A stretch of DNA of 64,000 nucleotides from Clostridia bacterium (GCA_022791835.1 JAAVZW010000027.1:10112-74111), one strand, 5' to 3'. Shown: positions 4,886 to 43,081, numbered from the stretch's first letter. A program made the numbers and translations. Notes: generated by a model not told the origin, from the sequence alone.

Positions 4886-6322
4886 CTATTTTTTTGTTGG
4901 TATTTTGATTACTACTTCTGTACCTTCGCCTTTTTTGCTCTTGATATCTATGCTACCATCATTTTTATCTAATATTTCTTTTGCTATTGATAGTCCTAGC
5001 CCTGTGCCTCCCATTTCTCTTGTTCTTGCTTTATCTACTCTATAAAATCTATCAAATATTCTTGTTAAGTCTTCTTCTGGAATTCCTATTCCATTGTCAA
5101 TTATTTTGATGTATGCATCATTGTATACGAATCCAACATATATTTTGATGTTTCCATCTTCTTTAGTATACTTTATACTATTTGTTAATATATTTAATAT
5201 TACTCTTTCTATTCCGTCTTTGTCTGCATGTACTTGTGGAACATTTGCTGTAACAAAACATTCTACTTTTTGATGTTTTTTATCTATTTCTATTTGTACT
5301 TTGTCTTGGCATTGTTTTACCAATTCACCTAGGTCAAATTCTGCTTTTTCTTGTTTTATTTCGTTATTATCATATCTTGACAATGACAATAGGTCTGTAA
5401 CTAGTTTTGCCATTCTCCTAGCTTCTGTTGCTATTACTGTTAGAAATTTGTCTTTTGTTTCTTTGTCATATTCGTCTTCTAATAATGTGTCTGCATAGCC
5501 CATTATTGATGTTATTGGAGTTTTCAGTTCGTGTGATACATCTGCTACAAATTCTTTTCTCATTTCGCTTAGTTTTACGTGTTCTGTTATGTCTTGGATT
5601 ACTACTATTACTCCTGATGGGATATCATCTTCATTTTTTAATGGTGCAAAGTGCATATGCATGTGGTTATCGCCTATTGTTACTCTTTCTTCTGATGATG
5701 TCCAGTTTTCTAAATATATTATTTTTTCTAGATTTATATTTACATTTAATTTTTGAAATATTTTTTCAAAGTTTTCATCTTCTGGTAATAGTCTTAAAAG
5801 TCTCGTTGCTGCAGGGTTTATTAATTCTATTCTTCCTTCCATATTGAAGGCTATTATACCGTCTGTCATGTGGAGTAGAATTGTTTCTATTTGGTTTTTC
5901 TTTCTTGATACTTCGCTTAGATTTTCTTTTAGTTCTCTTGTCATTACATAGAAGGCGTTTACTAGGTCATCTACTTCATTTTGAGCTATTGGTTCTGCTA
6001 GTTCTTTAGTTTGCACTTCTTCTCCTGATGCTATTTTTTTTGCACTATTTATTAGTCTTGTAATTGGTGAAATTATTTTTTTTGTTACAAATACTCCTAC
6101 TAGAACACATATTAGGGTAAATATGAAGATTGTTATTAGTGTTATGATTTTTAACTGTCCTTGATATTTTTGTATCATTAGACTATATTCTTCTATATTT
6201 TCTGTCTGTGATGTTGTTATTGATTGTAGGCTTGTATAATTGATATAACCCATTGCACCTATTATGATTATTCCTACTATTAAGAATATTAGAATTATTT
6301 TGATTTGTATATTTCTTAGCAT
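4886..6322 (-). CDS. sensor histidine kinase (2 TM, HAMP, PAS, HisKA, HATPase_c)
   Basis: 478 aa with H-box SHELKTPITSI and C-terminal GGTGLGLSIAKEI ATPase motifs. Paired with the upstream response regulator. Confidence 0.85.
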   Translation of the reverse strand: MLRNIQIKIILIFLIVGIIIIGAMGYINYTSLQSITTSQTENIEEYSLMIQKYQGQLKIITLITIFIFTLICVLVGVFVTKKIISPITRLINSAKKIASGEEVQTKELAEPIAQNEVDDLVNAFYVMTRELKENLSEVSRKKNQIETILLHMTDGIIAFNMEGRIELINPAATRLLRLLPEDENFEKIFQKLNVNINLEKIIYLENWTSSEERVTIGDNHMHMHFAPLKNEDDIPSGVIVVIQDITEHVKLSEMRKEFVADVSHELKTPITSIMGYADTLLEDEYDKETKDKFLTVIATEARRMAKLVTDLLSLSRYDNNEIKQEKAEFDLGELVKQCQDKVQIEIDKKHQKVECFVTANVPQVHADKDGIERVILNILTNSIKYTKEDGNIKIYVGFVYNDAYIKIIDNGIGIPEEDLTRIFDRFYRVDKARTREMGGTGLGLSIAKEILDKNDGSIDIKSKKGEGTEVVIKIPTKK

Positions 6323-6395
6323 TTTTTCCCTTTCATTTTTGCTTCAAGCAAAGGGCACTTGTTTTTTAGTGCCCCTTGTTTATTTATTTTTGTTT

Positions 6396-7139
6396 TTATT
6401 CTGGCTTTGCGATATAGTATCCTACGCCTCTTTTGGTTACAAGTATTTGTGGGTTTGTAGTATCTTCTTCAATTTTTTCTCTTATTCTTCTAACTGTAAC
6501 ATCTACTGTTCTAATATCTCCAAAGTATTCATATCCCCATACTTTTTCTAGCAATAATTCTCTTGAGACTATTTGTCCTGGTTGTAATGCTAGATATTTT
6601 AGTGCTTCAAATTCTCTTACTGTTAAATCCACTTTTTCTCCTCTAACTCTTACTTCAAATCTATCTACATCTAGGCTTAAGTCTCCTACTTCTATTTTGT
6701 GATCTTCTTTCTTTTCTTTATTTTCTTGTATAACTGTTGGCACTTCTGATTTTCTAAGATTTGCTTTCACTCTTGCCATTAGTTCTCTAACGCTAAATGG
6801 TTTTGTAATATAGTCATCTGCACCAAGCTCTAGTCCTACAATTTTGTCTAGTTCTTCGTCTTTTGCTGATAGGATTAATATTGGTACATTTAATGCACTT
6901 TTAATTTTTTTGCAAGCTGTAAGCCCATCCATTTTTGGAAGCATGATGTCTAGTAAGATTAAATCTGGTTTTTTCTCTAGTGCTGTTTCTACAGCTGTTA
7001 CTCCATCATTTGCTTCTATTGTGTTATATCCTTCTTTTTTTAGATTGTATACTAGTATATCGATTATTGATTGTTCATCATCTACTATTAATATTGTTTT
7101 TTTGTCTTCATCATCAAACATAAATGCTCCGCCTTTCAT
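6396..7139 (-). CDS. OmpR-family response regulator (receiver + winged helix)
   Basis: ILIVDDEQSIIDIL...D receiver domain and C-terminal trans_reg_C. True start probably the internal ATG at 7121 (MFDDEDKK, preceded by AAAGGCGGAG). Confidence 0.85.
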   Translation of the reverse strand: MKGGAFMFDDEDKKTILIVDDEQSIIDILVYNLKKEGYNTIEANDGVTAVETALEKKPDLILLDIMLPKMDGLTACKKIKSALNVPILILSAKDEELDKIVGLELGADDYITKPFSVRELMARVKANLRKSEVPTVIQENKEKKEDHKIEVGDLSLDVDRFEVRVRGEKVDLTVREFEALKYLALQPGQIVSRELLLEKVWGYEYFGDIRTVDVTVRRIREKIEEDTTNPQILVTKRGVGYYIAKPE

Positions 7140-7240
7140 TTGAGACTTTATATCTACTTTATATCACAAATTTGAAATTAAAACAAGTATTTTTATGTTT
7201 TTTATGGTAGAATATTTTTTTATTTTAGTTTTATGTTAAA

Positions 7241-7511
7241 ATTTTCTACAATATTTAAATTATAACAAAATTATTGCTATTGCAAATCAAAAAGGTGGAG
7301 TATTAACATTCTAGAATACTTAAATTATAACTGTCCATATCGGTTACCAAGACTGGAGCTGTATATGCTTTACATTCTAAAATACTTAAATTATAACGCA
7401 TAATACTTGGTGGCGTTGGTATTTCCTTGTATATATTTACATTCTAAAATACTTAAATTATAACACACACACACAGATGTTTTAGAAGACGGAAAAAGCG
7501 ATTTACATTCT
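7241..7511 (-). CRISPR. CRISPR array, trailer-side part: 3 intact or near-intact repeats + 1 degenerate terminal repeat + 11-nt repeat stump; spacers S0-S3 of 35-38 nt
   Basis: Repeat (minus orientation) GTTATAATTTAAGTATTTTAGAATGTAAAT, 30 nt, I-B-like ...ATGTAAAT end. Plus-strand copies at 7302-7331 (2 mismatches), 7368-7397, 7435-7464, stump 7501-7511, decayed copy 7241-7266. Spacers are unique. Orientation matches the minus-strand cas operon. Confidence 0.85.
7501..7511. repeat. attL core ATTTACATTCT (direct repeat of 37257-37267; equals one end of the CRISPR repeat)
   Basis: Identical 11-mer at both prophage junctions. On the left it is preceded by spacer S3 and followed by phage DNA (ACTATATTGAAACC...). 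Confidence 0.7.
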
Positions 7512-7631
7512 ACTATATTGAAACCTTTTTCTCTAAAAATTCTATATATATTCTCACAAGCTACATTCGGCTTGTATCATAGTCCATGTTATTTTTCAAA
7601 GTTAATTTTCGATAACTCTAGATTGATTTTA

Positions 7632-7664
7632 TTAGTAACAAATTAGTAACAAATTAGTAACAAA
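7632..7664. repeat. 3 tandem copies of TTAGTAACAAA (putative integrase arm-type sites, attL side)
   Basis: ttagtaacaaa x3. The same TAGTAACAA motif occurs twice at 37181-37200 next to attR. Confidence 0.4.
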
Positions 7665-7693
7665 AAAATTTTTTAACTTTTTTCAAAAAAGTA

Positions 7694-7722
7694 TTGACAA
7701 TGACGTAACGTCGTGTTATAAT
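7694..7722 (+). promoter_or_regulatory. sigma-A promoter P1 (TTGACA-17-TATAAT) with embedded palindromic operator GACGTAACGTC
   Basis: ttgaca 7694-7699, tataat 7717-7722. 5-1-5 palindrome at 7702-7712 in the spacer. Near-identical copy at 8157-8185. Confidence 0.6.
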
Positions 7723-7753
7723 TAATTTATCCTAAGAGAGAGGAGGTAAACAA

Positions 7754-7873
7754 ATGATACTAAAGAAACTCTTTAAAAAACAAAAAGAGCCGACTTTCAT
7801 TCAGAAAGTCGACAAGTGGCAGACCGAAATGTACCTTTACAAACTTTCCCAAGAACGCAAAGTACTTAGATAA
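7754..7873 (+). CDS. hypothetical small protein, 39 aa (MILKKLFKKQKEPTFIQKVDKWQTEMYLYKLSQERKVLR)
   Basis: Strong RBS AGAGGAGGT 7 nt upstream, immediately downstream of P1. Hand-called (<60 aa). Confidence 0.4.
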   Translation: MILKKLFKKQKEPTFIQKVDKWQTEMYLYKLSQERKVLR

Positions 7874-7884
7874 GCCACTGAGTT

Positions 7885-7915
7885 GAGGAGCTAGCACTCC
7901 TCTTCTCTAATATTT
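7885..7915 (+). terminator. possible weak intrinsic terminator (GAGGAG-ctagca-CTCCTC + T-rich)
   Basis: 6-bp stem hairpin followed by ttctctaatattta. Confidence 0.25.
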
Positions 7916-7954
7916 ATATCATAAAATATTACAAAAAGCAAGATAGGAGGAAAA

Positions 7955-8137
7955 ATGGAAAAAAGAAATTTAAAAATAACATTCAACAAATCAGGCAGCG
8001 GAAGTATAACAAAAAGAATCACACTTCCTAGTAAATTTATTTCAGACATGGGCATAACAGAACAAGATAGAGATGTTGAATTGCTATATGACGAACAGCA
8101 TAAACAAATTATACTAAGAAAAGCTAAAAAAAATTAA
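7955..8137 (+). CDS. AbrB/MazE/SpoVT-family DNA-binding protein, 60 aa
   Basis: ...ITKRITLPSKFISDMGITEQDRDVELLYDE... resembles the swapped-hairpin AbrB/MazE fold. RBS TAGGAGG. Confidence 0.5.
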   Translation: MEKRNLKITFNKSGSGSITKRITLPSKFISDMGITEQDRDVELLYDEQHKQIILRKAKKN

Positions 8138-8156
8138 AAAATTTTGCAAAAAAGTA

Positions 8157-8185
8157 TTGACAACGACGTAACGTCATGTTATAAT
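8157..8185 (+). promoter_or_regulatory. sigma-A promoter P2 (TTGACA-17-TATAAT), near-identical duplicate of P1 with the same GACGTAACGTC operator
   Basis: caaaaaagtattgacaaCgacgtaacgtcAtgttataat; 36 of 38 nt identical to P1. Confidence 0.6.
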
Positions 8186-8245
8186 ATAATTACAGTAAGA
8201 GATAAGACGTTAGCAAATGCAACGCACTCTGAGAAGGAGATTGTT

Positions 8246-8617
8246 ATGAAAGAAGCAAAAAAATATGAAGGAAGAAAAATTTTAGTAAAAGTCGAATCTG
8301 GCGACAAAAATACTGATTATTCGAAAAAAATAAATATTGTGAGAAGCTTAGAAAGCTTTAAAAATGATGTAGAAAATGATATGTATACATCTGTTGAACT
8401 AATTGAAGACAACTTAACTTTATATCAATGCGATGTTAAAAAAACGAGCGATTTAGCAAAAATTCATGAAATTAGAAGTTGCTGGGCAAAAGGAAAATTT
8501 AATTATGATATTTTCTTAACTAAAAATGAAATCAAAGAGTTGCTTGAAAATGATGCTCTTGTAGCTATAAATGGGTTACAAGAAATTGAACTAGAAGATT
8601 TAGAAAAGTTGAGTTAG
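8246..8617 (+). CDS. hypothetical protein, 123 aa
   Basis: Start chosen at ATG 8246 (MKEAKKYEGRK...) with RBS GAGAAGGAGA. The upstream part of track ORF 8144..8617 overlaps promoter P2. No recognisable domain. Confidence 0.5.
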   Translation: MKEAKKYEGRKILVKVESGDKNTDYSKKINIVRSLESFKNDVENDMYTSVELIEDNLTLYQCDVKKTSDLAKIHEIRSCWAKGKFNYDIFLTKNEIKELLENDALVAINGLQEIELEDLEKLS

Positions 8618-8620
8618 TGT

Positions 8621-9040
8621 ATGAGAGGTTATAATATTGATGATTATGTCGGTCAGAAATTCGGCAATCTTACTTTAATAAAAAACTTGAACAAAACAAA
8701 TAAAAACAATTCAAAAATAGCTCTTTTCAAATGCGACTGTGGAAATGAAAAAGAAGCAGCATTCACTCAAGTACTACATAGAGAAGTTACAAGCTGCGGT
8801 TGCATGAATCGAGACAAAAATTCTAATTTAAGACTTCAAAGCGTTAGAGACAAAAGAATAGAATTTACGAGAAATCATACTCAAAAAAATAATAAAACTG
8901 GCTGTAATGGTGTTACATATGCAAACGGAAAATATAGAGCTAGAATACAAGTAAATGGTTCTAGTATACATCTTGGATATTTTGACACTTTTGATAAAGC
9001 TGTCGAAGTGCGAAAAAAAGCTGAGAAAAAATATTTTTAA
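8621..9040 (+). CDS. HNH-like zinc-finger / AP2-domain protein (phage-type)
   Basis: N-terminal Cys cluster CDCGNE...SCGC. C-terminal GVTYANGKYRARIQVNGSSIHLGYFDTFDKAVEVRKKAE is a classic AP2 domain. Confidence 0.55.
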   Translation: MRGYNIDDYVGQKFGNLTLIKNLNKTNKNNSKIALFKCDCGNEKEAAFTQVLHREVTSCGCMNRDKNSNLRLQSVRDKRIEFTRNHTQKNNKTGCNGVTYANGKYRARIQVNGSSIHLGYFDTFDKAVEVRKKAEKKYF

Positions 9041-9047
9041 AAAAATG

Positions 9048-9076
9048 TTGACAGACTTTAAATTTTATAGTATTAT
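9048..9076 (+). promoter_or_regulatory. promoter-like TTGACA-17-TATTAT
   Basis: ttgaca 9048-9053, tattat 9071-9076. It is followed ~40 nt later by a terminator, so the pair brackets a ~55-nt unit. Confidence 0.4.
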
Positions 9077-9084
9077 AATTATGC

Positions 9085-9142
9085 AGTTACTAATCAGGGT
9101 AATTTGCACGCGAGGCGTCGTAAGCGACAGCCTTTTTATTTT
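9085..9142 (+). ncRNA. candidate ~55-nt small RNA (promoter-to-terminator unit, no ORF)
   Basis: TSS predicted near 9085. Hairpin GGCGTCG-taag-CGACAGCC followed by TTTTTATTTT at 9114-9142. Confidence 0.3.
9114..9142 (+). terminator. rho-independent terminator
   Basis: GC-rich stem ggcgtcg/cgac(a)gcc + T tract. Confidence 0.55.
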
Positions 9143-9152
9143 ATAAAAATAA

Positions 9153-9184
9153 AGACTAGACTTAGCCCCCGCTTTGTCTAGTCT
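9153..9184 (-). terminator. terminator for the minus-strand gene 9235-9639
   Basis: 9-bp perfect stem AGACTAGAC...GTCTAGTCT, followed on the minus strand by TTATTTTTAT. Confidence 0.45.
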
Positions 9185-9234
9185 GAAGTTATATATCTAA
9201 CTTTATTTTATTATAACATAATTGGAATATTTTG

Positions 9235-9639
9235 TCAATTCTTCGTATAATATATATCTACAAATACATACATGGACGACCTATCCGCCTTAGACTCTAA
9301 ACATATCATATTGTTATTAATAAACACGCCTACTGTGCTATTGTCTGTGGGTGTTAAAGGTCTTGTAGAATTTAGCGGAATTGCAGATGTCTCTAATCTC
9401 ATTATTCCTTCTATTTTTTCGTATGTAACATTACTTAATCCCGTTTGCACAGATTTTATTACATTGTTAGGTCCACTGCCACAATCTATTCTTTTTCGAT
9501 ATATACGTTTTTTGTCAATATACTCATTTGTAGCACATTCAACGTTTGTTTCAATCTCTACTTGTTTAAGTTTTTCGTTTTCCGCCTTTAATTCTGCCAC
9601 TTTTTCTTTTAATTTCATTATTTCTTCTACAAATATCAT
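9235..9639 (-). CDS. tail-fibre-associated protein, paralogue A (coiled-coil N-terminus, conserved C-terminal domain ending FVDIYYTKN)
   Basis: 134 aa. Roughly half the positions match ORF 12502..12876, including identical ATNEYID, VDCG, NVTY, VGVFI and FVDIYYTKN blocks. The start codon overlaps the stop of an upstream (AC)18-containing leader ORF. Confidence 0.6.
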   Translation of the reverse strand: MIFVEEIMKLKEKVAELKAENEKLKQVEIETNVECATNEYIDKKRIYRKRIDCGSGPNNVIKSVQTGLSNVTYEKIEGIMRLETSAIPLNSTRPLTPTDNSTVGVFINNNMICLESKADRSSMYVFVDIYYTKN

Positions 9640-9652
9640 AGCGAGTTCACCC

Positions 9653-9716
<64 letters not shown>

Positions 9717-9765
9717 TTTTATGCTACTTACAGCATTTTTGTTCATTTTATTTTTACCTCCTATT

Positions 9766-10795
9766 TTAGATAATTTCTACTTGAATTGCGTCTATTTCTT
9801 GTCCGAATATACCTGCGTATCCGTTTGTTGGATCGTTTTCATTATACTGTGTTATCCAACCTAGCCATTTGCCATTTTTTGTATGTACTCTGTACTTTGC
9901 TGTTCCCTTTGTTGCTTTTATCATTATTCCGTCTATTGCTCTGCCTTTGATGCCTGCAAAATCGTCTCCGCTTCTGTCTTTTTCTCTGTCTATAATTTCT
10001 CCTAGCCATCTTCCGTTCTTTGTATGTACTTTATAGATAAGCTTTCCTACATCGGCTTCATTTCCGCACTGTATTACCTCTAAAAGCTGTTATAGCTTGT
10101 CCGTATATTCCTGCATAGTCTTGTGTATTTAATACGTCTTGTAGCCATTTATTCGTGCATGCTTGGTATTTTACATCTATCTTTCTTTTTTCTGTAACTG
10201 TATTTTCTACTGCTTCGGTTTTGTGTTCTTCTTTTTTCTCTATGTTCAAGTATGCTAGTATTCCGTCTGCTATTCCGCTTGCTACCTTTGTTGCGTATTC
10301 TTCTGTTAAAATTAGCGGTGTATCGTGTTCGTTATCCATAAAGCCACATTCTATTAAACATGCTTTCATTTTTGTATCACGTATTATAGCAAAGTTTTGT
10401 GTCTTTACTCCTCTATTTTTCATGCCTGTTGCTTCTACTGCTTTATTATTTATAATTGTTGCTAGCCTTCCAGTTTCTCCGTTCTTACAAGCCTCATTAT
10501 ATACATAAGTTTCTATTCCAGTGCCTCCACCAGCATTATGATGTATTGATACAACAGCTTCTACATTAGCATTATTAGCATTTCTACATCTTGTGTTCAA
10601 GTCTATATCTGTATTTCCTGTGATGTCGTCTAGTCTTATAGCCTCTATGCCTTCATAGCTATTAAGTATATTGCATACTTTTGTAGCTACTCTGTTATTA
10701 ATCACCCATTCCCTTGTTTCGTTTACGTCAAATTGTTTTGCACATCTTTTTCCTGCCGTGTGTAATCCATGTCCTGCGTCTATTCCTATTTTCAT
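9766..10795 (-). CDS. endolysin: N-acetylmuramoyl-L-alanine amidase (Amidase_3) + C-terminal ChW repeats; apparent +1 frameshift near 10058
   Basis: MKIGIDAGHGLHTAGKRC... amidase_3. After the in-frame TGA at 10058 the +1 frame continues ...YKVHTKNGRWLGEII...YRVHTKNGKWLGWIT...GYAGIFGQEIDAIQVEII* (two ChW repeats). Confidence 0.7.
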
Positions 10796-10855: not shown

Positions 10856-11404
10856 TTAATTTCCGCAACATTGTTTATATTTCTTCCCACTTCCACAAGG
10901 GCATGGGTCATTTCTTCCAATCTTTCGAGATACAGCTTGTTGCCTAGCTTTTAATTTTTGTACATAATCTGTACATTCAATAGATGGTATTCTAAAAGAA
11001 AAACATGTTTTTCCTTCATAATTAGATATTGCTAAATCCCCAAGGCCTATAACATCCATCCCTATCAATAAGTCTGAACCTTCAACTGCTGTGAATTCGG
11101 TTACTGCTACTGCTGGAATTCTTACTCTATTTGGTAATTCAATATCAACAATGTATGTATTAACATCTCTTTCTCCATTTGCAGTATTTATAGTTGCTTT
11201 TCCAGTTGGAATTAATCCACATTGTTCTACTACTTTGCTCGAAATTGCTGTGTCTGTTGCCCCTGTATCCCAAATAGCATTAAATTCTTCCTCTTTTGAT
11301 TCTTTGAATAATTCTTTATTTGCAGAAACCTTTACTTTGCTTAATAATACATTCGCCTTAGCTTGTGCTTTATAAGTAAATGCAGAAACGTGTATGTTAG
11401 CCAT
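10856..11404 (-). CDS. retropepsin-like (clan AA) aspartic protease fused to a C-terminal SEC-C zinc motif
   Basis: [12 protein letters not shown] (DTGA active-site loop), ...[12 protein letters not shown]-terminus [19 protein letters not shown] = SEC-C motif. The start overlaps the upstream gene by 8 nt. Confidence 0.6.
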
Positions 11405-12501: not shown

Positions 12502-12876
12502 TTAATTTTTTGTATAATATATATCTACAAATATATGAAGTGCAGACCTGTCTATTTTCGTTTCAAGCATTATTTTATTGTACGATATAAATACCCCGAC
12601 GCTTGAATTATCTGTCGATTGTTGCGGTCTTGTAAAATTTATAGGAAGACCTCCATCACTTATTTGAGCTATTCCATCAATTTTTATATAAGTCACATTT
12701 CTAAGACCTGTTTCGACTTCTTTTAAAGCTGAATTTGGTGCCGCTCCGCAATCTACTCTTTTTCGATACACTCTTTTATCATCGATGTATTCATTTGTAG
12801 CATATTCAATACCTGTTTTGATTTCTATTATTTCTGTTTCTAATTCTTGTAATCTCTGCTCAATTAATTTACTCAT
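12502..12876 (-). CDS. tail-fibre-associated protein, paralogue B (see 9235-9639)
   Basis: 124 aa with the same conserved blocks and FVDIYYTKN C-terminus. Its start overlaps the stop of the fibre gene (ATGA). Confidence 0.6.
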   Translation of the reverse strand: MSKLIEQRLQELETEIIEIKTGIEYATNEYIDDKRVYRKRVDCGAAPNSALKEVETGLRNVTYIKIDGIAQISDGGLPINFTRPQQSTDNSSVGVFISYNKIMLETKIDRSALHIFVDIYYTKN

Positions 12877-12879
12877 TCA

Positions 12880-13777
12880 CTTGCACCTCGCTTTCTTGTG
12901 TTTGTGTTACTCCTCGCACTATTGCTGTTATTGTTATGTCATTGCTTAGTGTCCAGTCCTCGTCAAGTAATAGCTGTATTGTATTGCTTGTCTCTCCTTC
13001 GTTGCCGTGCTTCTACATAGTCTATGTCTTTGACTAATACTTGTCCGCATAGCAGTACCTGTAATGAGTTATTGCTTACTTGATACTTAAGCGGTAGTGT
13101 TACTATATAATTATTTGTGAGTGTTGTATTTTTTGTTATTGTGAGTAATTTTACATCTACATTTTTCAGTAAATAATTACTCATTTTGTCATTTACTATT
13201 GTTTCTACATTGTTTTCTACTGTTTCTATTTTTGTTTTCAAATCATTATAATTTGCAAGTAATTCATTTAAGTCGCTTACCATTGCATCATATCTTCGCT
13301 CTATGCTTTCTATTTCGTCTGCTCCGTGCTTGTGTTATATCGTTTAGCAGTTTTTTTGCATCTGCTTCTAACTGTGCTATTGCTTTTTCAAATCTTTCTA
13401 TATATGTTTCTGTATTATCTGATGTCATATTTTCTTTTGACGTTTTTTCTATAAATACATTCATGCAAAATGTAGACACTGTCTCTGAATTTTGTTTGAG
13501 TACTATCTCGATTTCCGCTTCTCCGTGCTATTCTTAAGCAGTCGTCTAATAATGTTACTGTGATTGTGCTATTTTCTTCATCTATACTACATTCTTGAAT
13601 AACTATAAGCTCATTCGGCTTTTTGAAAATAATATCTGCAGATAAACTACTCAAGTTTATTCCTAAGCCGTTGTCTAGTATTTTGAAAGTTAATTCTGTT
13701 GTGTCTAATTGTTTAAGCCTCAGTGTCTCATAATTTTTCACTTTCAAATCTAGCACTATTATTTCTGCTCTTTTCAT
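12880..13777 (-). CDS. BppU-family baseplate/tail-fibre protein, broken by at least 2 apparent frameshifts
   Basis: N-terminal MKRAEIIVLDLKVKNYETLRLKQLDTTELTFKILDNGLGINLS... = BppU_N-like. The coiled coil and C-terminus continue in other frames (track ORFs 13415..13777, 13288..13479, 12963..13283 and +1 frame to stop 12880). Confidence 0.5.
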
Positions 13778-13795: not shown

Positions 13796-15899
13796 CTACT
13801 TCATATATCCGATTATGTTTAAAACCGCTTTTGCTTCTCCCGTTTGCTGATAGCCTGATATGTTCGGATTTGCCACAGTACCTGCGGCAGGTGCGTTGTT
13901 AGCTGTTTGAACTACCAAAACTGTTCTTCTTGAATTAAGATAATTCTTAATATCTATACTTTCTATTGTTTCTAGTTTACAATTTGAGTTTGAAGCTGCG
14001 GATGCTGTGAAACCATTTGCACCAAATGCGTTTTGTATTTCCATTAAGTTATTATAATAGCTCTCTCCAAATTCGCCACCAAATGCTGTTGCTGTTATTA
14101 TTGCATCTAGTGTTGTTATTTTATATAGTTTCAAATTTCTTGAATATCCCCATACATTGCGTGTTATATCGTCTTTATCCCTGTAATCCCAATAAATTGG
14201 TCTATGTTCTAGCAATATTTTTGCACTTTGTATAACAAAATTTTCGGGAATATTAACATCTAAAGTTAATCTACTTTTGTAGTATTGCTCCAGTATCCAT
14301 GTATAGCCGCAAAATCCACTATCGTAATACTGAAAATTACTTAATACTCCATTTCCACCGATTAACTTAGAGCCATTTAGCAGTGAAATTCCTTCGTTGT
14401 CCGCTATTATTTTGTCTATTGCATTTTCGTCTTTAATTATCATTCTTCCTCTTCCGTTGTTGTTTCCTCCTAAAATTAAGTCACTTCCAAACAATCTGCT
14501 TAAGCTCATTGAACCTGCTTTAATTATGTTCGCGTTAAGAGTTCCGAGCTGTTATGAAATCTGCAACAATTGCCCCGTCCATTGTCATTGCTGTCCCGAA
14601 CGTGCCGTTCAAGCCATTTTTTGAATATCCTAATCCATTTAGATTAAACATCCAAATTTTTTGTGCGGTATTTATATCGTCTGTATCCATGCATAGCAGC
14701 ATGTTCGGCTTATAATACATATTGCCTTCTGTTGCATTTTTTAGGAGTTCACTTGCATTTTGTTTTGCTTGGGTTAATACGTTTGTTTCAAGATTCGCCG
14801 TTTCTTTTTTTACTGCATTAGATATATTCTTATTTGTGTCTGTGATATAATTTGCTTTAAATTCGCCGTAGCTCTAATTTTGTAAATCTTTTATATAAAG
14901 CATCATATACGGTTTTTATTACTCTTACTTTTACCTTTATTCGGTCTAGAACTACTGTTACTGTATCTCCTAGCTTAACTTTTGATAAAAATTCATAGTC
15001 CTGGTATTCTATTGTTTTAGACAAGTCTACAAAATCAACTTTTACATTGATTTGCGGTTTATCTATATTGTTTTGAGAAAACTCTGCAGCTGCTCTTTTT
15101 CTTAATTCTGCATAACATTCGTTTAATGTTGCATATCCTTCTTGGTCGTTTTCGTTTTCTTTTAGCTTAATATCAGAGTAGTCTATTTGTCCAATTTTTG
15201 GATTCGGATATTCATTAATTAGCGGGCTGTCTATATATTTTTCGGGTAACATTAAGCCGTTGTAGCCGCATTGGTCTTAATCTAGTAATTACATTTGTAT
15301 CCTCTTTTGCGAATTTTAGTCCTGTTATATTTTTTCTATATTTGATTTTATAACCACTGTCTTCGCCTCGTCTACTTAACATCTTGATTGTGAAGTTGTC
15401 TCTTACAATCTCTCCGTCCCCAAATGTTTACGAAACTATTGTCTATATCTCCTAATACCGCTTCTATGATATTTTTTCTAACATATCTTGCACTTGCCTT
15501 TTTTGATATATCAGAAAAGCTTTTAAATCTGTGTGAATATTGTGTATGAGTTAGTATCCAGTCAAGAGCTACATTACCGTCTAAATTTTGCGGGAAAGTA
15601 TCGTCCAAAGCATTATCTACTAAGTCATACGATATATGCTGTAAGTTTGCTGTTATTGTAGATAAGCTTTCATTATAATTTTTTACTCTGAAGAGCTGCC
15701 TTTCTGTAGCTCCTGTATCTAACTTAACAATCATATCGTTATCTATATAATTTGAGTATTTGCAATTTTTGGGATATTCGAAATCTACTGTGAATTCTCC
15801 ATTTAGTTCTTCCGTAACTTCGCATTTTATAGTATCTCGTAGGCTTCCTATCCCGTTGTTATTGAAATTCGTTTCTTTTGAGTTATACAAATTAATCAT
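13796..15899 (-). CDS. tail-associated lysin / tail endopeptidase (Tal), broken by at least 3 apparent frameshifts
   Basis: N-terminus MINLYNSKETNFNNNGIGSLRDTIKCEV... (phage minor structural/endopeptidase N-domain). Frame changes at the GGGG run near 15397 and near 15300 (NVITRLRP / YGYNGLMLPEKYI). Track ORFs 15372..15899, 14857..15252, 14535..14720, 13796..14509. Confidence 0.55.
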
Positions 15900-16586: not shown

Positions 16587-18661
16587 TCAAGCTCCTCCTT
16601 TTGCTAATTGTGCCTTTTGAAATACAAAGGCTAATTCTTCGCCTAACTCTTTTATATCTTCTTTTGAGTTATTTACAAATGTATCTATGTTTAAAATTAA
16701 TTGAAATTGCTTTTTATCTTTTCTGTCTCTACCTTTGTTTTCGTCTTTATTTTTATCCTCTGCTTTTCTTGGTTTCTGTAAATTTCTATTATACTCTGCA
16801 TTTTCTTCTTTTGTTAAAACTCTTTCGCCTTTATGCAAAAATGCTGCGTAGTCGTCTTCGGGAACATAGTCAATACCTACTTTTAATTTTGGTATCTCTT
16901 TGATATGAATGCCGAATCCTCCGTACTCCTGGTACCCAATCTGGTATTTTTATTTTATTAAGTCCTCGAATAAATGCATTTATCGCACCTATTATCCAAT
17001 TTATCGGCGTTTTGAATATATTTCCAAGTGCATTAGCAATATTTGAAAATATATTTTTTACACCTTCCCAAGCACCTTTCCAGGAGTTCATAAATACATT
17101 TTTAACAAAGTCTATTATCTTTTTAAATGTATTGATTACACCTGATATTATGTTACCGATTGTTTCAAACGCTTTTCCGAAAACATTACTTAGAATGTTT
17201 GCTACTACTGACAATGCACTTTGCAAAGGCGGTAGTATTGTTTTGATTATAGTGTTAAACAAATTTATGATTGGCGGTAGTATTATGTTTATTAATTTTA
17301 AGAGCGGTTGCAACAACGTCATAAACAAATCTATTATAGGTTTTAATAGCTGTATTAAAGGCTCTAGCAGTTGTAATATTGGTTGTAGTAGCTGTATTAT
17401 TATTGGCAAAACTGCTTGTATTATTTGCATTATCGGCGGTAAGAGTGTATTTATTAAGTCTATTAGAACTGGCAGTATTGCTTCTAATATCTGAGATACG
17501 AAAGGTATTATCTGATTAAGTAAATCGAATAATACAGGCATTATAGTTTGTACTAATTGCATCATCGGGGGAAGCAAGTTTGCAAATAAATCAGTTATTA
17601 TAGGTGTCATTTGCCCTATTATTCCTTCTATTGCAGGCATATTACTCATAATAAATTGTACTATTTGTTCTAAAATTGGCATCAATGCATTACCTAGTGG
17701 CAACGTTAGCATTTCAACATTTCTTTTCAATCCTTCGAACATGTCTGATAGATTGTCATACTTTATCTCTTTAATTTTGTTCATTGTGTCTGCTGTTCCA
17801 TTAAATCCTGTTTGCATTTCTCCTAGTGATGTTACTACTTGTGGCCCTAAGTCTTCCCACATTGTACCAAATAAGTCTACACCTATTACATTTTGTTCTA
17901 CTGCATCGTCTACATCTCCAAGTTTTTGAACTACTTCCATAAATGCATTTCTAGCTGTCTCCCCACCTTGTGCAAACCTAGATGCCATGTCGTCTGCGTT
18001 TAGCCCTAACTTTGTAAACCCTTCTATTGTTGTATTTGAGCCGTCCACCGCACGAATGCTAAATTCTTTTACTGCATCTCCTATTTTGTCTAAATTAAAC
18101 GCTCCGTTCTCACTTCCTGTTTTAAATATAGCAAACATATCCTCTGCTGAGAAGCCTAGTTTTTCAAACTGTACGCTATATTCATTTATGTTGTCTATGA
18201 ATTCTCCTGAAAAATCTAATCCTTCTTGCATTCCGCTGTGCAATTAGATTAAACGCTTGCTTTCCGTCTACTCCAAAATGGTCCATAAGAGCCTTTGTAG
18301 CTCTTACTGATTCTGACACTTCAATATCAAATGTGTCTCTTAAAGCAAGTGCATCTTCTGTTATTTCTTGTAGTTCATTATCGTTCATATCTCCTAATTG
18401 CATTTTTACTTGTGCCATACTATCTGCAATATCTTGAAAGTCTTCTCCATAGTTATTTTTATATATATTTTTCAAAACTTCTTCATATTGCTCTGTTGCT
18501 TCTTCTGCTGTACCTGTTGTAACAATATAGCTGTTCATAGCTTTGTCTATGTCTTTTGCTGTATTTACTGCCATTCCACCTATTGCAGCTCCTGCTGTTA
18601 TTGCTGCTGTTCCTATTGCTGCTCCCCACTTGGCGGCAGTTTTGGCGACATTACCAAACAT
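16587..18661 (-). CDS. tape measure protein, with 2 apparent frameshifts (near 18240 and 16850)
   Basis: Track ORFs 18182..18661, 16870..18243 and 16587..16838 join into one protein. Internal degenerate LxxLLxPIIQ repeats. C-terminus ...IPKLKVGIDYVPEDDYAAFLHKGERVL is TMP-typical. Confidence 0.7.
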
Positions 18662-35865: not shown

Positions 35866-35937
35866 TTGTATTATATACAAAATGCTTTCATTTTTCAAGT
35901 GTTTTCAAAAAATATTTGAAAAATGGGGGCATTTTAT

Positions 35938-37183
35938 ATGATTAAGAAAAAAAGAAAATATAAATATGGTAGTGTGGTGTATCTGGGAGAAAACCGTTCT
36001 CAACCATATATGGCTAGAGTAACACTTCGGATATAACAAAGGTGGTTATCCCGTCTATTTTTCATTAGGCTATTTTGAAGAAGAACTTGATGCATACATA
36101 TGCTTAAGAGACTTTAATAACAAACTATATGATTTGTATGTAAAAAAACAAGTATATGACAAAATAGACGTGTTCTCTACTTTGCCAGTTAAACTTTTTG
36201 TATCTGACGTCAAGCGAAAATACGAAGACGTTTCAACATACACATTCAAGCAAGTATATGAAGAATGGAAAAAAGTATATTTCCCCACAAAAGAAGAAAT
36301 CGAGGAGGAAAAAAGAACTCACAGGCGAACCCATGGCAAATTTTCTGTTGCAAATAAGGGCAATCTCGCTTCTGCTTTTAGCAATTGCAAGATTCTTCAT
36401 GATAGAATATACAGAGACTTAACTGACTTAGATTTTCAAGAAGTTATAAACAATACAAAACGGTTGTCGCAGTAAGCTCTACAATATACAAAATTTGTGT
36501 AAAAAACTAGATAAGTTTGCTTTGAGAAAAAAGATTATAGAAGAAGATTATGCAAAATTCATTGAGATTGACATTCAAGAAGACGAAACACATAGAAAGC
36601 CTTACACTTATGACGAAATCGCGTTCTTGTGGACCCTAAAAGGCAATATTTTAGTTGATATATTACTAGTGCTACTATATTCACGGCTTTAGAATAGAAG
36701 AATTGCTAGAGCTTGAAATAGTCAATATAGACTTAGAAAACGGAACAATGCTCGGAGGTCTTAAGACTGATAGCGGTAAGCATAGAATAGTACCTATTCA
36801 TTCTATGATACTGCACATTATACTACGATATTATGACAAAAAGAATAAGTATCTATTCACTGACAAGAACGGAAACAAAATCAAATACGATAAGTATTAT
36901 CAAGATTTTCTAAAATTCAAAAAAGAAAACAAAGAAAACTTTGATATTACACATGTTATTCACGAAACCAGGCATTCTGTTTGCTCTGATTTAGATAAAT
37001 ACGGAGCAAATAAGAAGTGTAGAGATATGATACTACGGACACAAAAGCAAAGAAGTTGGCGATAGAGTCTATAATCACAAAACAATAGAAGATTTAAAAA
37101 TTACTATTGAATTAATTACATATAAAGATACAAAAATTGTAAAATTCGATACACAAAAAACAGCTCTTGAAAAGTCTTCTTAG
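35938..37183 (+). CDS. int: tyrosine recombinase (phage integrase), fragmented by at least 4 apparent frameshifts
   Basis: Pieces: MIKKKRKYKYGSVVYLGENRSQPYMARVTL..., ...TFKQVYEEWKK..., ...LVDILLVLLYS/GFRIEELLELEIVNIDLENGTMLGGLKTDSGKHRIVPIH...HETRHS...ILGHKS...VGDRVYNHKTIEDL (R..HxxR..Y catalytic set), stop 37181-37183. Confidence 0.7.
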
Positions 37184-37200
37184 TAACAATCTAGTAACAA
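37181..37200. repeat. two TAGTAACAA arm-type-like repeats adjacent to attR
   Basis: tagtaacaa at 37181-37189 and 37192-37200; the same motif x3 occurs at 7632-7664. Confidence 0.4.
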
Positions 37201-37256: not shown

Positions 37257-37267
37257 ATTTACATTCT
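37257..37267. repeat. attR core ATTTACATTCT
   Basis: Identical to 7501-7511. Here it is one end of a complete CRISPR repeat. Confidence 0.7.
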
Positions 37268-37286
37268 AAAATACTTAAATTATAAC
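37257..37286 (-). CRISPR. leader-proximal CRISPR repeat (single, complete) now separated from the rest of the array by the prophage
   Basis: atttacattctaaaatacttaaattataac is identical to repeats at 7435-7464. Followed on the minus strand by phage DNA, not a spacer. Confidence 0.8.
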
Positions 37287-37466
37287 TGGTCAATTTAGAT
37301 CGCCCATAATAATAGGGTTTTAGTGTTTGTTTCCGTCGATCTATGATTTATTTTATCATATTGTTTTAGCTCTTTAAAGATATTTTTTAAAAAAGCTTAT
37401 TTTTAGCGTTTTTTGTTATCTGTCGTTCTACTGCTTTTTTTGCATTATTATAGGTCGACAGTTCTT
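37287..37466 (-). promoter_or_regulatory. CRISPR leader (AT-rich, between the cas3 stop and the first repeat)
   Basis: 180-nt AT-rich non-coding stretch downstream of the last cas gene, immediately upstream (minus orientation) of the first repeat. The trailer-end repeats at the far side are degenerate, which supports this orientation. Confidence 0.55.
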
Positions 37467-39659
37467 TTATAGCATTCGTGTGTCTAAATCATATTCTTCG
37501 TCTCTTTTTAACAATAATCCAATTTCATTGTCATACTTTAGGTCTATTATTTCTATTTCGCTAATATATGGATTTGGAGATATGTATTCTTTCATTTTTC
37601 TATACTGTGCGTAGCTTATTGTTGTTGTTAGTTTATTTATTTTTCTTTTTAGTTTGTTTTTATTCTTGTACGTTATTTCTTCTTTATATGCTTGAAATAA
37701 GTCTATATTTTGATCATAGATTGTTTTTGGTATTACTGTTACATTATCTATGTTTCTTAGTAACTTTTGTGCTTCTGTTTTGTTTGTGTCATAATCTACT
37801 ATATTATCTAGAAATTCCATACCCGTTTTGAAAGTTTTTATAAATCTCGTGTTTTCTAGTGTTTCTTTTGAATATAATTTATCTACTAGTTTTATTTTAT
37901 CTGTTTCTTCTAGTATTTTGTTGTTGAATGGTAATAGTAGTTCTATACTTTTTTGATTTATTTCTTCATCATATATATGTCCTATTCCTGTTGCTTCTTT
38001 TGTATAAATGTATACATTGGATTCTTCTTTTTTATATTCTCTGTTTCTGTAGCATCTTCCCATTCTTTGAAAAATGCTGTCTAACGTTGACATTTCTGTG
38101 TATAGGTAGTCAAAGTCTATGTCTAACGAGGCTTCTACTATTTGTGTTGTTATCCATATACCTCTTTTTTCTTGATTTTTTGAGAATTCTTTTATCTTTT
38201 CTTCTTTTTGATTTCTGTCTTTTCCTATAAATCTAGAATGTAATAGTTTTACATTGTCTGCTTGTTTTTCTTTTAGTTCTGAATATAACTCTATTGCTTT
38301 ATTTACAGTATTACATATGACTAATACTTTATTATTTTTGCTTTTTTCTTTTATTTGATCTATTTCTTCTTTTATGTTTTTTTCTTTTATTTGGATTTTA
38401 TGCCTTTGTACGTTTTTTATAAATTCATTGTATTTAAATTGTATTCCCATTTTTTCTAGTTCTTCTTTATAAATTCTTGGTAATGTGGCTGTCATTACCA
38501 TAAATTTTCCACCTAACTTATGTATCATTTGTAAGCCTTTTAGTATAACTGCTACTATTTCTGGAGAGTATGCTTGTATTTCGTCTATAATTATTTTCGA
38601 ATAACTAAGGGTTGCATATATTTTTTCATAGCCTTTATACTTAAAAACGAATGGGAATATTTGATCTATTGTGCATGTTGTTATCTTTTCTGATAGGTTT
38701 CTTGATTGTTCATATATTTGTAGTCCTAAGGATAGTTCATCTTTTTCTTCTAGGTAATCTAATGCTGTTCCATGTAATAATCCTACATGTTCATAATTCA
38801 TACCCTCTCGTATTCTGTCAAATATTGCGTTTATGCTTATTCTTATTGGTAATGTGAAAAAAGTTTTGCTATTTTTACTCCATAATAGGGCTGATTCTGT
38901 TTTTCCTATTCCAGTCGAACCTATGACTAATAAATTATTATCTTGATTTTGTTTACTGAATTCTTGTATGTCTCTTAGCTGATATCCTTTGCTTTTTATT
39001 TGGTTTCCTACTACCTCTCCTATTTCTTCATTTGTTTCGTCCTCTACCTTGATATTCGCAGAGCTACTATGGTCTAATCTATGTAATAATCCTTTGAGCA
39101 GGCAATATTCTTCATATTGCCTGTCCTTTTTTGATATTCGGTCTCTTTTTCCGCTTCCTATATACATTAGATACATTGAATTAGGATGTTTTTCGATTTC
39201 TATACCTATTTCTTTCTCTATTTGTTCTGCTTGTGGAAGTATGTCTGTTTTGATTATTTCTTCTACTAATTTACTATCTACTGGCACTTTTTCTCTTTCA
39301 TGGTGATAGAAAATAACTTGATATATTAATCTCTTTTCTTCTTTACTTAAATTAAATTTTTGTGTTGGTATGAAAAGAGGAGAAAGTTCTTCATGTCTAG
39401 CTATTTCATAGCTAAATTTAGTGGATAAGGTTTCTTTTCCTAATTTTTTTCTTATTTCGTTTTGAAAAGGTGTGTATACTTTTCCTATGTCATGGTATGT
39501 ACATATTATTTTTAATAAGTCCCAAAATCTTTCTTTTTCTATGTTTTTTCCTTTTAAAATTTCTTCGCCATATGTGTTTTTTAGTATTTCTAAGTTTTTT
39601 AATAATGCTTTTGTATGTTCTTCTACTGTTTGCTCAGGTTTAGATTTTGCATAATACAT
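37467..39659 (-). CDS. cas3: Cas3 (HD nuclease + DExH helicase)
   Basis: HD motif ...ICTYHDIGKV..., Walker A GSTGIGKTES, helicase motifs. Start placed at ATG 39659 (RBS AGGAG); the track ORF extends to 39698 and would overlap cas5. Confidence 0.85.
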   Translation of the reverse strand: MYYAKSKPEQTVEEHTKALLKNLEILKNTYGEEILKGKNIEKERFWDLLKIICTYHDIGKVYTPFQNEIRKKLGKETLSTKFSYEIARHEELSPLFIPTQKFNLSKEEKRLIYQVIFYHHEREKVPVDSKLVEEIIKTDILPQAEQIEKEIGIEIEKHPNSMYLMYIGSGKRDRISKKDRQYEEYCLLKGLLHRLDHSSSANIKVEDETNEEIGEVVGNQIKSKGYQLRDIQEFSKQNQDNNLLVIGSTGIGKTESALLWSKNSKTFFTLPIRISINAIFDRIREGMNYEHVGLLHGTALDYLEEKDELSLGLQIYEQSRNLSEKITTCTIDQIFPFVFKYKGYEKIYATLSYSKIIIDEIQAYSPEIVAVILKGLQMIHKLGGKFMVMTATLPRIYKEELEKMGIQFKYNEFIKNVQRHKIQIKEKNIKEEIDQIKEKSKNNKVLVICNTVNKAIELYSELKEKQADNVKLLHSRFIGKDRNQKEEKIKEFSKNQEKRGIWITTQIVEASLDIDFDYLYTEMSTLDSIFQRMGRCYRNREYKKEESNVYIYTKEATGIGHIYDEEINQKSIELLLPFNNKILEETDKIKLVDKLYSKETLENTRFIKTFKTGMEFLDNIVDYDTNKTEAQKLLRNIDNVTVIPKTIYDQNIDLFQAYKEEITYKNKNKLKRKINKLTTTISYAQYRKMKEYISPNPYISEIEIIDLKYDNEIGLLLKRDEEYDLDTRML

Positions 39660-39660
39660 T

Positions 39661-40316
39661 TTAATACTCCTTTTCATAGAAAAATACGTAGTCTCCATCT
39701 TGGTCTCTCAACACTTGCTCTATTCCTTGGTTTGTATGTCTTTCTATATATTTCACATTGACTTTATCCCATTTTCTGAGGTTATTTATTATTTGATATT
39801 TAGTGTTTAATCTATATTGTATTCCACTAATTTCATTGCTCAAATGCTCTGGTACATATGCGTTGTACTCGTTTATCATTCCTCCTGATAATTCAGGTTT
39901 TTGAATGATTTTTACCTCATCTACTCTTACCATATCTTCGTTTCTTCCTAGTGTAAAAGTTTCTTTTCCTGTTACGATGTTTTCATATATTTTTTCTATT
40001 ATCTCATCTTCTGCTTGTACGTGGATAATAAGTTCTATATTTAGTAATTGGTGTACATTTCTTGGCATTGATGTCACTTGGTCTTTTCCTTTAAACATTC
40101 TTAAGTTTTGATAGTTAGAAAATATACTTTCATATTTGCCTTGTATGGAGATATTCATTTTAAAATATTCTCCGAAATTTAGCTCCTAGAATTTTGTGAA
40201 GCATTCCTATTACTGTTGAATATGGTGGCAAAGGATAGGTTTCTGCTACTTTGAAGGCAAATGGCTTTTTGTAGCAGGCTGTTTCTTGAAATAGTTTCAT
40301 TTTTAAATATTTCATT
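39661..40316 (-). CDS. cas5: Cas5 (type I-B), apparent 1-nt frameshift near 40172
   Basis: N-terminal 57 aa MKYLKMKLFQETACYKKPFAFKVAETYPLPPYSTVIGMLHKILGAKF in one frame, the rest (track ORF 39661..40158) in another. One extra G in ...TTTCGG(G)AGAA restores AKFRGEYFKMNISIQGK. Confidence 0.7.
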
Positions 40317-40329
40317 TCTCCCATCCTTT

Positions 40330-41232
40330 CTATTTACAATAGTACTCCTCTACTTGCTTCTCTAAGTTTTCAAAAAATTCTTGTACAGATGTTACTTTTC
40401 CTTCAAAAATTTCTTCTATTTCTTTTTCATTTTTGAAAGTATCTTTTACTATTCCTATTTTTGTATCGTTATATATAGAATTTTCTCCTACTTTTAGACT
40501 TAGTGTGTCTTTTAACATATTTGTATTTATTGTAAATTCTTTGTTTCTTCCTTCTAGTTTGATTCTTCCTAAGAAGAATGGCGAATTTAGGTCATAAATT
40601 CCTCCTATTACAAATAGTGGACTTAGGTTTTCTTCTCTTCCTCTTATTTCTCTATTTAATACTTTTATTATTTCTAATAATTCTTTTACTCTTTTGTTTC
40701 TAATGTTATTGTCCATTGTTAATTCACCATCTACTCCTACTTTTGATAGGTCTATTGTTACTGTGTATGTATAGTAGCTTAAATGTTGTTCTATGTTTGC
40801 TAGGTTTGGGAATTCGTTTATTCTATCTGCTAGTCCTTTGTTGTTTAAGAAGTCCATATCACTTTTATAATCTTCTAAGGAAATTGCATTACTTAGTCTT
40901 ACTGCTGCGCTTCTAATTAGTGACGCTCCTTCTTCTTTTTTTGCTGTTTTCATGTATCCAAATAAATCCATTTCTTCTGAATCTTCTATTGTTAATTCGT
41001 CTTTGAATTGTACTGTACCTTTTGATTTGTCTACTACTTCCAAATTCCATCCAAATAGTTTATTTCCTATCCTTGCTATATCATATCTTAGTGCTTGTCT
41101 TGATGCAAATGTGTATACACTTCCATCTCCTCTTGTTAATTTTTTTAGTTCTGATATATTTCCTATCCCTTCTCCATAGTTTAGGCTTTGTGCTTTGAAA
41201 ATCATTGTTATTGTTAATCCATTTTTATTCAT
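40330..41232 (-). CDS. cas7: Cas7 (Csh2/Cst2, type I-B backbone)
   Basis: 300 aa, MNKNGLTITMIFKAQSLNYGEGIGNISELKKLTRGDG...FASRQALRYDI typical Cas7 N-terminus. Confidence 0.8.
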   Translation of the reverse strand: MNKNGLTITMIFKAQSLNYGEGIGNISELKKLTRGDGSVYTFASRQALRYDIARIGNKLFGWNLEVVDKSKGTVQFKDELTIEDSEEMDLFGYMKTAKKEEGASLIRSAAVRLSNAISLEDYKSDMDFLNNKGLADRINEFPNLANIEQHLSYYTYTVTIDLSKVGVDGELTMDNNIRNKRVKELLEIIKVLNREIRGREENLSPLFVIGGIYDLNSPFFLGRIKLEGRNKEFTINTNMLKDTLSLKVGENSIYNDTKIGIVKDTFKNEKEIEEIFEGKVTSVQEFFENLEKQVEEYYCK

Positions 41233-43063: not shown

Positions 43064-43081
43064 GTTTTTGCCTCCTTGCTT

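Follow-up and report, generated by a model that had tools for sequence, protein, structure and literature searches.

The question raised by this locus is how a lysogen can tolerate a CRISPR spacer that matches its own prophage perfectly, beside a plausible PAM. The window, i.e., the whole stretch of 64,000 nucleotides from a Clostridia bacterium that was analysed here, contains a short CRISPR array split by a prophage, and the spacer that abuts the left attachment site of this element (S3) is identical to a site within it. A type I system that targets its own chromosome kills the cell, and S3 must therefore be ineffective in the lysogen. Tolerance of this kind is usually put down to an anti-CRISPR or to mutation of the cas genes, the PAM or the target; spacers directed at a resident prophage were reportedly treated by Stern in 2010 and Rauch in 2017. 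The reading preferred here, with a probability of roughly 0.6, is that S3 records a genuine earlier immunisation against this phage family and was silenced when the phage integrated into the array itself.

The array is a type I-B array of four spacers (S0-S3) that is transcribed from the minus strand. Its 30-nt repeat (plus strand, ATTTACATTCTAAAATACTTAAATTATAAC) has four copies to the left of the prophage, with no mismatches at 7435, one at 7368, two at 7302 and eight at 7237, in addition to a 12-nt stump at 7501-7512 and a further perfect copy at 37257-37286, which lies 29.8 kb off. The degenerate terminal (trailer) repeat (7237-7266, minus strand), with its eight mismatches to the consensus, is followed by S0, the oldest spacer (7267-7301, minus strand), and then by a minus-strand segment (7302-7464) made up of the repeat with two mismatches, S1 (7332-7367), the repeat with one mismatch, S2 (7398-7434) and the perfect repeat (7435-7464), before S3 is reached at 7465-7500. 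The distant repeat is adjoined by a leader-like sequence of approximately 180 nt (37287-37466, minus strand), which carries a promoter-like site (37378-37350).

The decay of the repeats towards 7237, the minus-strand orientation of the cas genes and the repeat ending ATGTAAAT, as in the I-B repeat of C. difficile, show that the leader lies at the cas3 end and that the crRNA strand is the minus strand; S3 was therefore the first spacer after the leader. A comparison of the strains points the same way, given that the S0 end is common to them and the opposite (cas3) end is variable: three sister strains of approximately 99% identity (L083, L088 and L092) have kept S0 and carry two different newer spacers, and a further strain (L085) has two further different newer spacers. 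As these differences sit at the cas3 end, it is there that spacers have been added. The preliminary description had taken S3 to be the leader-proximal spacer before the insertion, and this is borne out by the repeat decay, the common S0 end and the order leader-repeat-S3-repeat-S2 in a contig that lacks the prophage (L001). A search for the repeat in one genome per species and in the JGI metagenome contigs returned no matches, and synteny with the nearest species representatives revealed no related array. In the closest of these representatives, a rabbit-gut Clostridia MAG (L003), the whole block 7219-59034 (array, prophage, cas operon and polysaccharide-synthesis genes) is absent between conserved flanks; this block is a variable genomic island.

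The self-match itself was re-computed, and the earlier claim holds in full: the crRNA-sense spacer CGCTTTTTCCGTCTTCTAAAACATCTGTGTGTGTGT (36 nt) has exactly two copies in the window, at 7465-7500 (minus strand) and 9653-9688 (plus strand), each with 0 mismatches, against an expectation of 0 matches by chance in 100 shuffles. The homology ends at both sides, the spacer copy being flanked by ATGTAAAT and GTTATAAT, both of which are repeat sequence, and the protospacer copy by GTTCACCC and GTGTGTGT, which are unlike them. Since the flanks differ, the pair is not a duplicated block, and a duplication artefact is ruled out; the match is prolonged to 38 nt by chance, through no more than the first GT of the downstream repeat. 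A (TG)18 microsatellite (9678-9713) contains the last 11 nt of the spacer, and the full-length match exists in one register only. The pair therefore combines full-length identity (36/36) with a genuine array in the same genome, and the target lies within a prophage recognised by PHROG structural and lysis matches, attachment sites and an empty site. An assembly chimera was rejected, since the protospacer with its flank and both insertion junctions were seen again in contigs of independent samples (L002 and L096 from JGI 3300051405, and L090 from SRR11195283). The other spacers (S0-S2) have no other match within the window with up to eight mismatches allowed, and S0-S3 have 0 matches among the IMG/VR viral contigs.

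The protospacer lies at the edge of a (CA)18 tract within a 36-aa ORF (9636-9746, minus strand), in which the tract encodes His-Thr repeats and the stop overlaps (ATGA) the start of a 134-aa gene (9235-9639), itself a paralogue of 12502-12876. In the JGI sample, the tract has 19 units (L096 53-91). By our reading, 19 units would lead to an early stop and 17 or 20 units to an in-frame fusion with the 134-aa gene, such that the tract looks like a phase-variable switch.

Directly 5' of the protospacer, in the position of the PAM, stands CCC (9650-9652, plus strand). The newest spacer of the three sister strains mentioned above, which are non-lysogenic, GTCCTCGTCAAGTAATAGCTGTATTGTATTGCTTGT, matches the prophage of the window over 36 of 36 positions at 12956-12991, with a CCA flank at 12953-12955 (second protospacer with its flank, 12953-12991, plus strand). 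Two independent spacers of this array family thus target the prophage, and the 5' flanks of these only two protospacers, CCC and CCA, both begin with CC, an outcome with a probability of approximately 4e-4 by chance, as calculated from the dinucleotide composition of the prophage; no motif is common to the flanks when the orientation is reversed. In the type I-B system of C. difficile, all four CCN motifs were interference-proficient, in that no transconjugants were obtained, and 96% of the newly acquired spacers came from CCN sites (PMC8406132). The preliminary description had suggested CCC as a plausible PAM of the CCN type, which gains support because the second spacer of the lineage matches the same prophage with a CCA flank, and with the low chance probability and the C. 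difficile data, CCC is very probably a permissive PAM, as judged from two protospacers and by analogy with another species.

The prophage (7513-37256, 29.7 kb), the ends of which are set by the empty site, splits the array at the 12-bp core ATTTACATTCTA of the first repeat, and this core is duplicated at 7501-7512 and 37257-37268. At attL, the core (7501-7512) represents the last 12 nt of the repeat in the crRNA sense, including the ATGTAAAT end, and the remaining 18 nt have been swapped for phage DNA; at attR, the intact 30-nt repeat (37257-37286, minus strand), with the core at 37257-37268, is still joined to the leader. Arm-type TAGTAACAA repeats are found at both ends, three of them with 11-bp spacing inside attL (7633-7663, plus strand) and two inside attR (37181-37200, plus strand), and a tyrosine recombinase gene adjoins attR, with its 3' end within the first attR arm site. 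The element therefore had a site-specific phage integrase with arm sites of its own, although the gene (35923-37183, plus strand) is now a pseudogene in at least four reading-frame segments, in which the HxxR and Y motifs are recognisable, and its sequence is identical in L090. The duplicated core, the arms at both ends and the integrase at attR agree with the earlier claim that the prophage had integrated into the repeat adjoining S3.

Decisive evidence of the insertion comes from public assemblies, which were queried with the response regulator (6396-7139) that adjoins the array. One contig (L001, SRR27313147) represents the unoccupied site and is 100% identical to 5791-7512 running straight into 37257-37475, in the order S0, S1, S2, S3, intact repeat and leader, such that a perfect repeat containing the attB core is restored. 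A second contig (L002, JGI 3300051405) has the occupied site with the same junction between S3 and attL, and a third (L090, SRR11195283) matches the attR side over 10.4 kb at 100% identity. The phage-side arm at attL extends the identity with the repeats of a related group (L216-type) to 19 contiguous nt, which suggests that the attP may have been shaped on the I-B repeat of another host.

The prophage is siphovirus-like, with matches to terminase, portal/protease, capsid, tape-measure, Dit, Tal and endolysin proteins, and its megablast search against 50,697 GenBank phage records returned no match. It is real, as had been described, but the decay of its integrase, tape-measure and tail genes had escaped notice: in addition to the integrase, the tape-measure gene (16587-18661) is split into 159 aa and 457 aa, with the same split in the JGI sample and an intact relative of 717 aa, and a tail protein gene (14535-15899) is a truncated pseudogene. 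The element is thus a decaying prophage. In the lysis region, one gene (10856-11404) encodes a retropepsin-like aspartyl protease domain and, at the C-terminus, a SEC-C motif, and cell-wall-binding-like repeats occur in other frames at 9766-10058, downstream of the endolysin amidase domain (10058-10795), such that the endolysin may also be frameshifted.

Given this structure, the following course of events is proposed. S3 would have been acquired from the phage by the type I-B system of the host, at a site flanked by CCC, and inserted next to the leader, where a new spacer is expected to go; a phage of the same family would later have integrated by means of its tyrosine integrase, through recombination of its attP core ATTTACATTCTA with the identical 12 bp of the first repeat, the recombination point being the spacer-proximal end of that repeat. 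Following the insertion, S3-S0 sit 29.8 kb from the leader promoter and behind phage terminators, and the repeat upstream of S3 is cut to its last 12 nt, with phage sequence in place of the part that Cas6 recognition requires. From the separation of the leader and the truncation of the upstream repeat, no mature S3 crRNA would be expected, and the cell would tolerate the perfectly matched, PAM-flanked site in its prophage. The preliminary description had listed the displacement of the array from its leader among several candidate reasons for tolerance, and it is the best supported of these, once joined with the loss of the upstream repeat; the insertion itself, through these two effects, is the likeliest reason why the lysogen tolerates S3.

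This proposal builds on the match, the flank, the array polarity, the integration site, the empty site, the leader separation and the terminators, each of which was observed directly. The prophage genes that adjoin attL (7754-9040) point away from the array, and the sole strong minus-strand promoter nearby (9238-9210, 12/12 consensus) is followed immediately by a stable hairpin and a U-run. This promoter faces another at 9048 (plus strand, 11/12 consensus), which is likewise followed by a strong hairpin and U-run, and the resulting back-to-back hairpin terminators (9100-9185) stand between the lone strong minus-strand phage promoter and S3, where they are predicted to block minus-strand transcription towards the spacer; the convergent arrangement also predicts two small RNAs of approximately 55-65 nt, and a search of 7000-10000 against Rfam returned no match. 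A second terminator-like site is found at 7813-7789, and the attL hybrid no longer forms the weak hairpin of the repeat. We infer that the S3 crRNA is absent and that interference is otherwise competent.

Some of the observations run counter to this. Weak minus-strand promoter-like matches near and inside the array (7535-7507 and 7337-7308) count against silencing, and the cas5 frameshift that is found throughout the lineage counts against silencing having been needed, since interference may have been impaired before the integration. The timing is also hard to square, in that the advanced decay of the prophage stands against flanks of 100% identity in the empty-site contig.

The most serious alternative, which is nevertheless considered unlikely, is that this lineage had lost interference, or retained it only in crippled form, before the phage arrived, its cas5 being split and its partial operon lacking cas4, cas1 and cas2, such that S3 is an inert fossil, and the phage adjoins it only because the first repeat, where the newest spacer lies, is the invariable integration site of the family. 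The operon in question (37467-43804, minus strand) consists of cas6 (43082-43804), cas8b (41225-43063), cas7 (40330-41232), the split cas5 (40160-40324 and 39661-40158) and cas3 (37467-39698), with NCBIfam matches to Cas6, Cas8b1/Cst1, Cas7/Cst2/DevR, Cas5b (in two pieces) and the HD and helicase domains of Cas3. The presence of Cas8b together with Cas7, Cas5, Cas6 and Cas3 identifies the system as type I-B; the operon lacks cas4-cas1-cas2, the leader following directly after cas3, as it does in all of the strain contigs. A partial operon without cas1, cas2 and cas4 is also known from C. difficile. Directly upstream of cas6, an MBL-fold hydrolase and a TIGR04255-family protein are encoded at 44048-46044, and given that the hydrolase has weak matches to anti-phage MBL proteins, the two may be a defence gene pair.

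The cas5 gene is not intact. Its pieces encode 54 aa and 165 aa, and an alignment with intact 220-aa homologues of approximately 82% identity places a single inserted T (+1) within GCT AAA TCC GGA. All 11 of the strain contigs that were aligned have the insertion, non-lysogens with different arrays among them, and 17 contigs from numerous samples encode exactly this 165-aa product. Neither an error of sequencing nor a reaction to lysogeny can therefore account for the inserted T. The lineage-wide insertion, the C-terminal fragment on these 17 contigs and the intact homologues favour a system that was defunct before the phage arrived, as do the two relatives with a readable host side (L178 and L217), which are likewise found at a leader-proximal repeat, and the fact that two of the eight known spacers of the lineage match this phage makes a matching newest spacer not improbable.

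On the other hand, all 10 of the variable sites in cas5 are third-position synonymous changes, each in the frame of its own fragment, and nine of them come from contigs that were retrieved via Cas7, i.e., contigs that had not been selected on Cas5. The C-terminal fragment begins at a Met that is invariant in the homologues, in a TAAAATG stop-start arrangement. Both pieces thus look constrained by purifying selection and still translated, which weakens the notion of a dead Cascade, and the split Cas5 may be functional. Moreover, cas3, cas7, cas8b and cas6 are intact in all of the strains, the leader ends of the arrays show turnover, with new spacers that have the correct CC flanks, and the strains with the CCA-flanked spacer are not lysogenised. 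The cas5 frameshift, which had been named as a possible reason for tolerance, is therefore a weak one, being found in 11/11 strain contigs, non-lysogens included, with both fragments under purifying selection, and the missing adaptation module, also named, is beside the point, since cas1, cas2 and cas4 are irrelevant to interference. In the strain loci examined (L083, L085 and L092), none has a linked cas4, cas1 or cas2, and their leader-proximal spacers differ nonetheless; from these differences at the leader end, it is probable that an adaptation module encoded at another place in the genome serves the array in trans. Programmed +1 frameshifting at UUU-CGG in cas5 was also considered and dropped, given that most strains have UUC and that, compared with the ancestral sequence, the change is a simple T insertion.

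A second alternative, which is given still less weight and is regarded as improbable, is that an anti-CRISPR of the prophage inactivates Cascade or Cas3, either alone or on top of the split array, for which any strongly promoted small orphan gene at 7754-8617, regulated by the AP2-domain protein, may be a candidate. The left end of the prophage (7694-9040, plus strand) carries accessory genes that read away from the array (orf39, orf60, orf123 and the AP2-domain regulator). Two perfect sigma-70 promoters of the form TTGACA-17-TATAAT (7694-7722 and 8157-8185), each with the palindrome GACGTAACGTC in its spacer, i.e., a common operator, drive these small orphan genes and the regulator directly inside attL. 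A related phage (L179/L180) keeps orf60 and the AP2 regulator beside a different, variable ORF, an arrangement that resembles an acr-aca layout, and the left-end genes are, by their position, suggestive of such a locus. In the otherwise identical prophage of the JGI sample (L002 1-105 against 7742-7845 of the window), a different segment of approximately 105 nt replaces the start of the 39-aa gene by attL, which is a small cassette swap. An anti-CRISPR is also required by the phage ΦAP1.1 at entry (10.1101/2020.10.09.333658), and a type I-B anti-CRISPR is reported from C. difficile phages (PMC10732046). The case for one here is built on gene position: none of the four left-end proteins matched Pfam, orf123 has no homologue in known phages, and no likeness to a known anti-CRISPR emerged for these left-end genes.

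A third scenario, which is thought very improbable, is that S3 was taken from the already resident prophage in an autoimmune event, and that excision and re-integration then produced the present order. Self-targeting spacers are reportedly enriched against prophages (PMC7708048), and an empty-site form with S3 does exist, but a new spacer would have joined the array at its leader side, which is the attR side of the prophage, and the array has no linked cas1, cas2 or cas4; the scenario would also need an extra excision and re-integration from an integrase that is broken in at least four places. The least credible possibility is a PAM escape, in which CCC is non-permissive for this Cas8b and S3 was never active against this exact variant, given that, although the only other protospacer known has CCA and the system offers just these two data points, adaptation normally selects interference-proficient PAMs, four of four CCN motifs blocked transconjugants in the C. 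difficile tests cited above, and the flank is identical in two lysogen samples.

Silencing by integration gains in breadth from relatives of the integrase, which were found with the conceptually repaired protein as the query. The intact relatives are 49-59% identical, with 49-55% for those that have this arrangement next to complete I-B operons of other hosts. In one of them (P0127, locus L178), the integrase is followed by TAGTAACAA arms, a hairpin, ATTTACATTCTA, the rest of the 30-nt repeat, a leader and then the cas genes, in a complete operon (cas2-cas1-cas4-cas3-cas5-cas7-cas8b-cas6). The same layout is found in a second (P0133, L217, GCA_948934525.1), beside a complete I-B operon and with a variant repeat, the core of which is ATATAAATTCTA. 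A third group (P0124, L214-L216) has the same core followed by a repeat-like 30-mer; no cas gene was recognised in the gene downstream of the L214 repeat, and these loci count only as a core with repeat-like sequence. In the phage genome P0123 (L179/L180), arm sites flank a related core on both sides, and this site is an attP. A further clade (P0150, 45% identity) has its integration site at another place, where no cas genes lie close by. Among the viral contigs, the repaired integrase found no relatives, and searches for TAGTAACAA-N45-70-core (metagenome and viral contigs) and for the core with an arm (viral contigs) returned only chance matches that had no arm sites or hairpins.

In each of the two relatives in which the host side is readable (L178 and L217), the insertion is at the leader-proximal repeat. 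Based on these sequences, the attB of a clade of Clostridia phages seems to be the leader-proximal I-B repeat, and landing there looks like the normal lifestyle of the family rather than an accident. Given such a fixed landing site, the adjacency of S3 and attL need not reflect selection, and the position of S3 may simply follow from the site. A bolder extension, that the clade integrates at leader-proximal I-B repeats as a dedicated, protein-free off-switch for the whole array, with the S3/attL junction as the natural footprint of an escape, is put forward tentatively, at a little under even odds; if true, it would mean that the split cas5 of the host is still functional.

The locus matters in part because three states of it can be found in public data, namely, a lysogen in which a perfect, PAM-flanked spacer adjoins attL, the empty site of the same strain, and sister strains that have been immunised otherwise. 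The related intact integrases beside complete I-B operons suggest that the strategy is recurrent in gut Clostridia. A tolerated self-target need not imply an Acr protein, which affects anti-CRISPR searches that are based on self-targets, and the interpretation of short or "orphaned" arrays in metagenome-assembled genomes is affected as well. To our knowledge, integration into a repeat as a means of immune evasion formerly rested on one experimentally studied case, that of ΦAP1.1.

Among the known systems, that of C. difficile type I-B (Boudry 2015, PMC4556805; Maikova 2021, PMC8406132) shares the gene order cas6-cas8b-cas7-cas5-cas3, a repeat of approximately 29-30 nt that ends in ATGTAAAT, spacers of 35-37 nt and a 5'-CCN PAM. 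The organism and the body of the repeat differ, however, the present cas5 is split, and the arrays here are very short (2-4 spacers); C. difficile arrays are often found inside prophages, whereas the present one is interrupted by a prophage. Self-targeting spacers against resident prophages are reportedly common (Nobrega et al. 2020, PMC7708048), and they present the same perfect pair within one genome, the tolerance of which needs a loss of interference. Unlike the usual cases, the target and its flank are intact here, and the prophage physically splits the array beside the spacer. The Tn7-like transposons of cyanobacteria are also mobile elements that use the CRISPR repeat as a landing site, although they insert into a spacer, leave the repeats intact and are thought to be near-neutral for immunity (PMC11837452).

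The closest precedent is ΦAP1.1 of Streptococcus pyogenes, in which, as in the present case, a short core inside the CRISPR repeat serves a temperate phage as attB. In that type II-A system, it was shown by experiment that the spacers beyond the prophage are untranscribed and the spacer at the interrupted repeat is unmatured, such that spacers against the phage are neutralised, and that only the insertions that prevent a targeting crRNA survive; there are also natural strains in which the prophage occupies the first repeat and the array behind it is intact (2021, Nat Microbiol; preprint 10.1101/2020.10.09.333658). The likeness is one of working, and a relationship to ΦAP1.1 is not expected: the core has 12 bp here and 8 bp in ΦAP1.1, the present system is of type I-B (Cascade/Cas3) in an uncultured lineage of gut Clostridia, its integrase has TAGTAACAA arm sites and its prophage is decayed. 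ΦAP1.1 expresses an anti-CRISPR at infection for its entry; no anti-CRISPR was recognised in the present phage, the left end of which has candidate orphan genes with strong promoters, none of them homologous to known proteins. The anti-phage spacers in the ΦAP1.1 tests were reportedly supplied by experiment, unlike the natural, perfect and PAM-flanked spacer that lies directly at attL here. Phage escape by integration into the array was thus known already, and its type I-B instance is seen here for the first time. What is new is the I-B setting, the natural perfect spacer directly at attL, observed together with the empty site and with sister strains that have been immunised, and the fact that related integrases recur in this arrangement.
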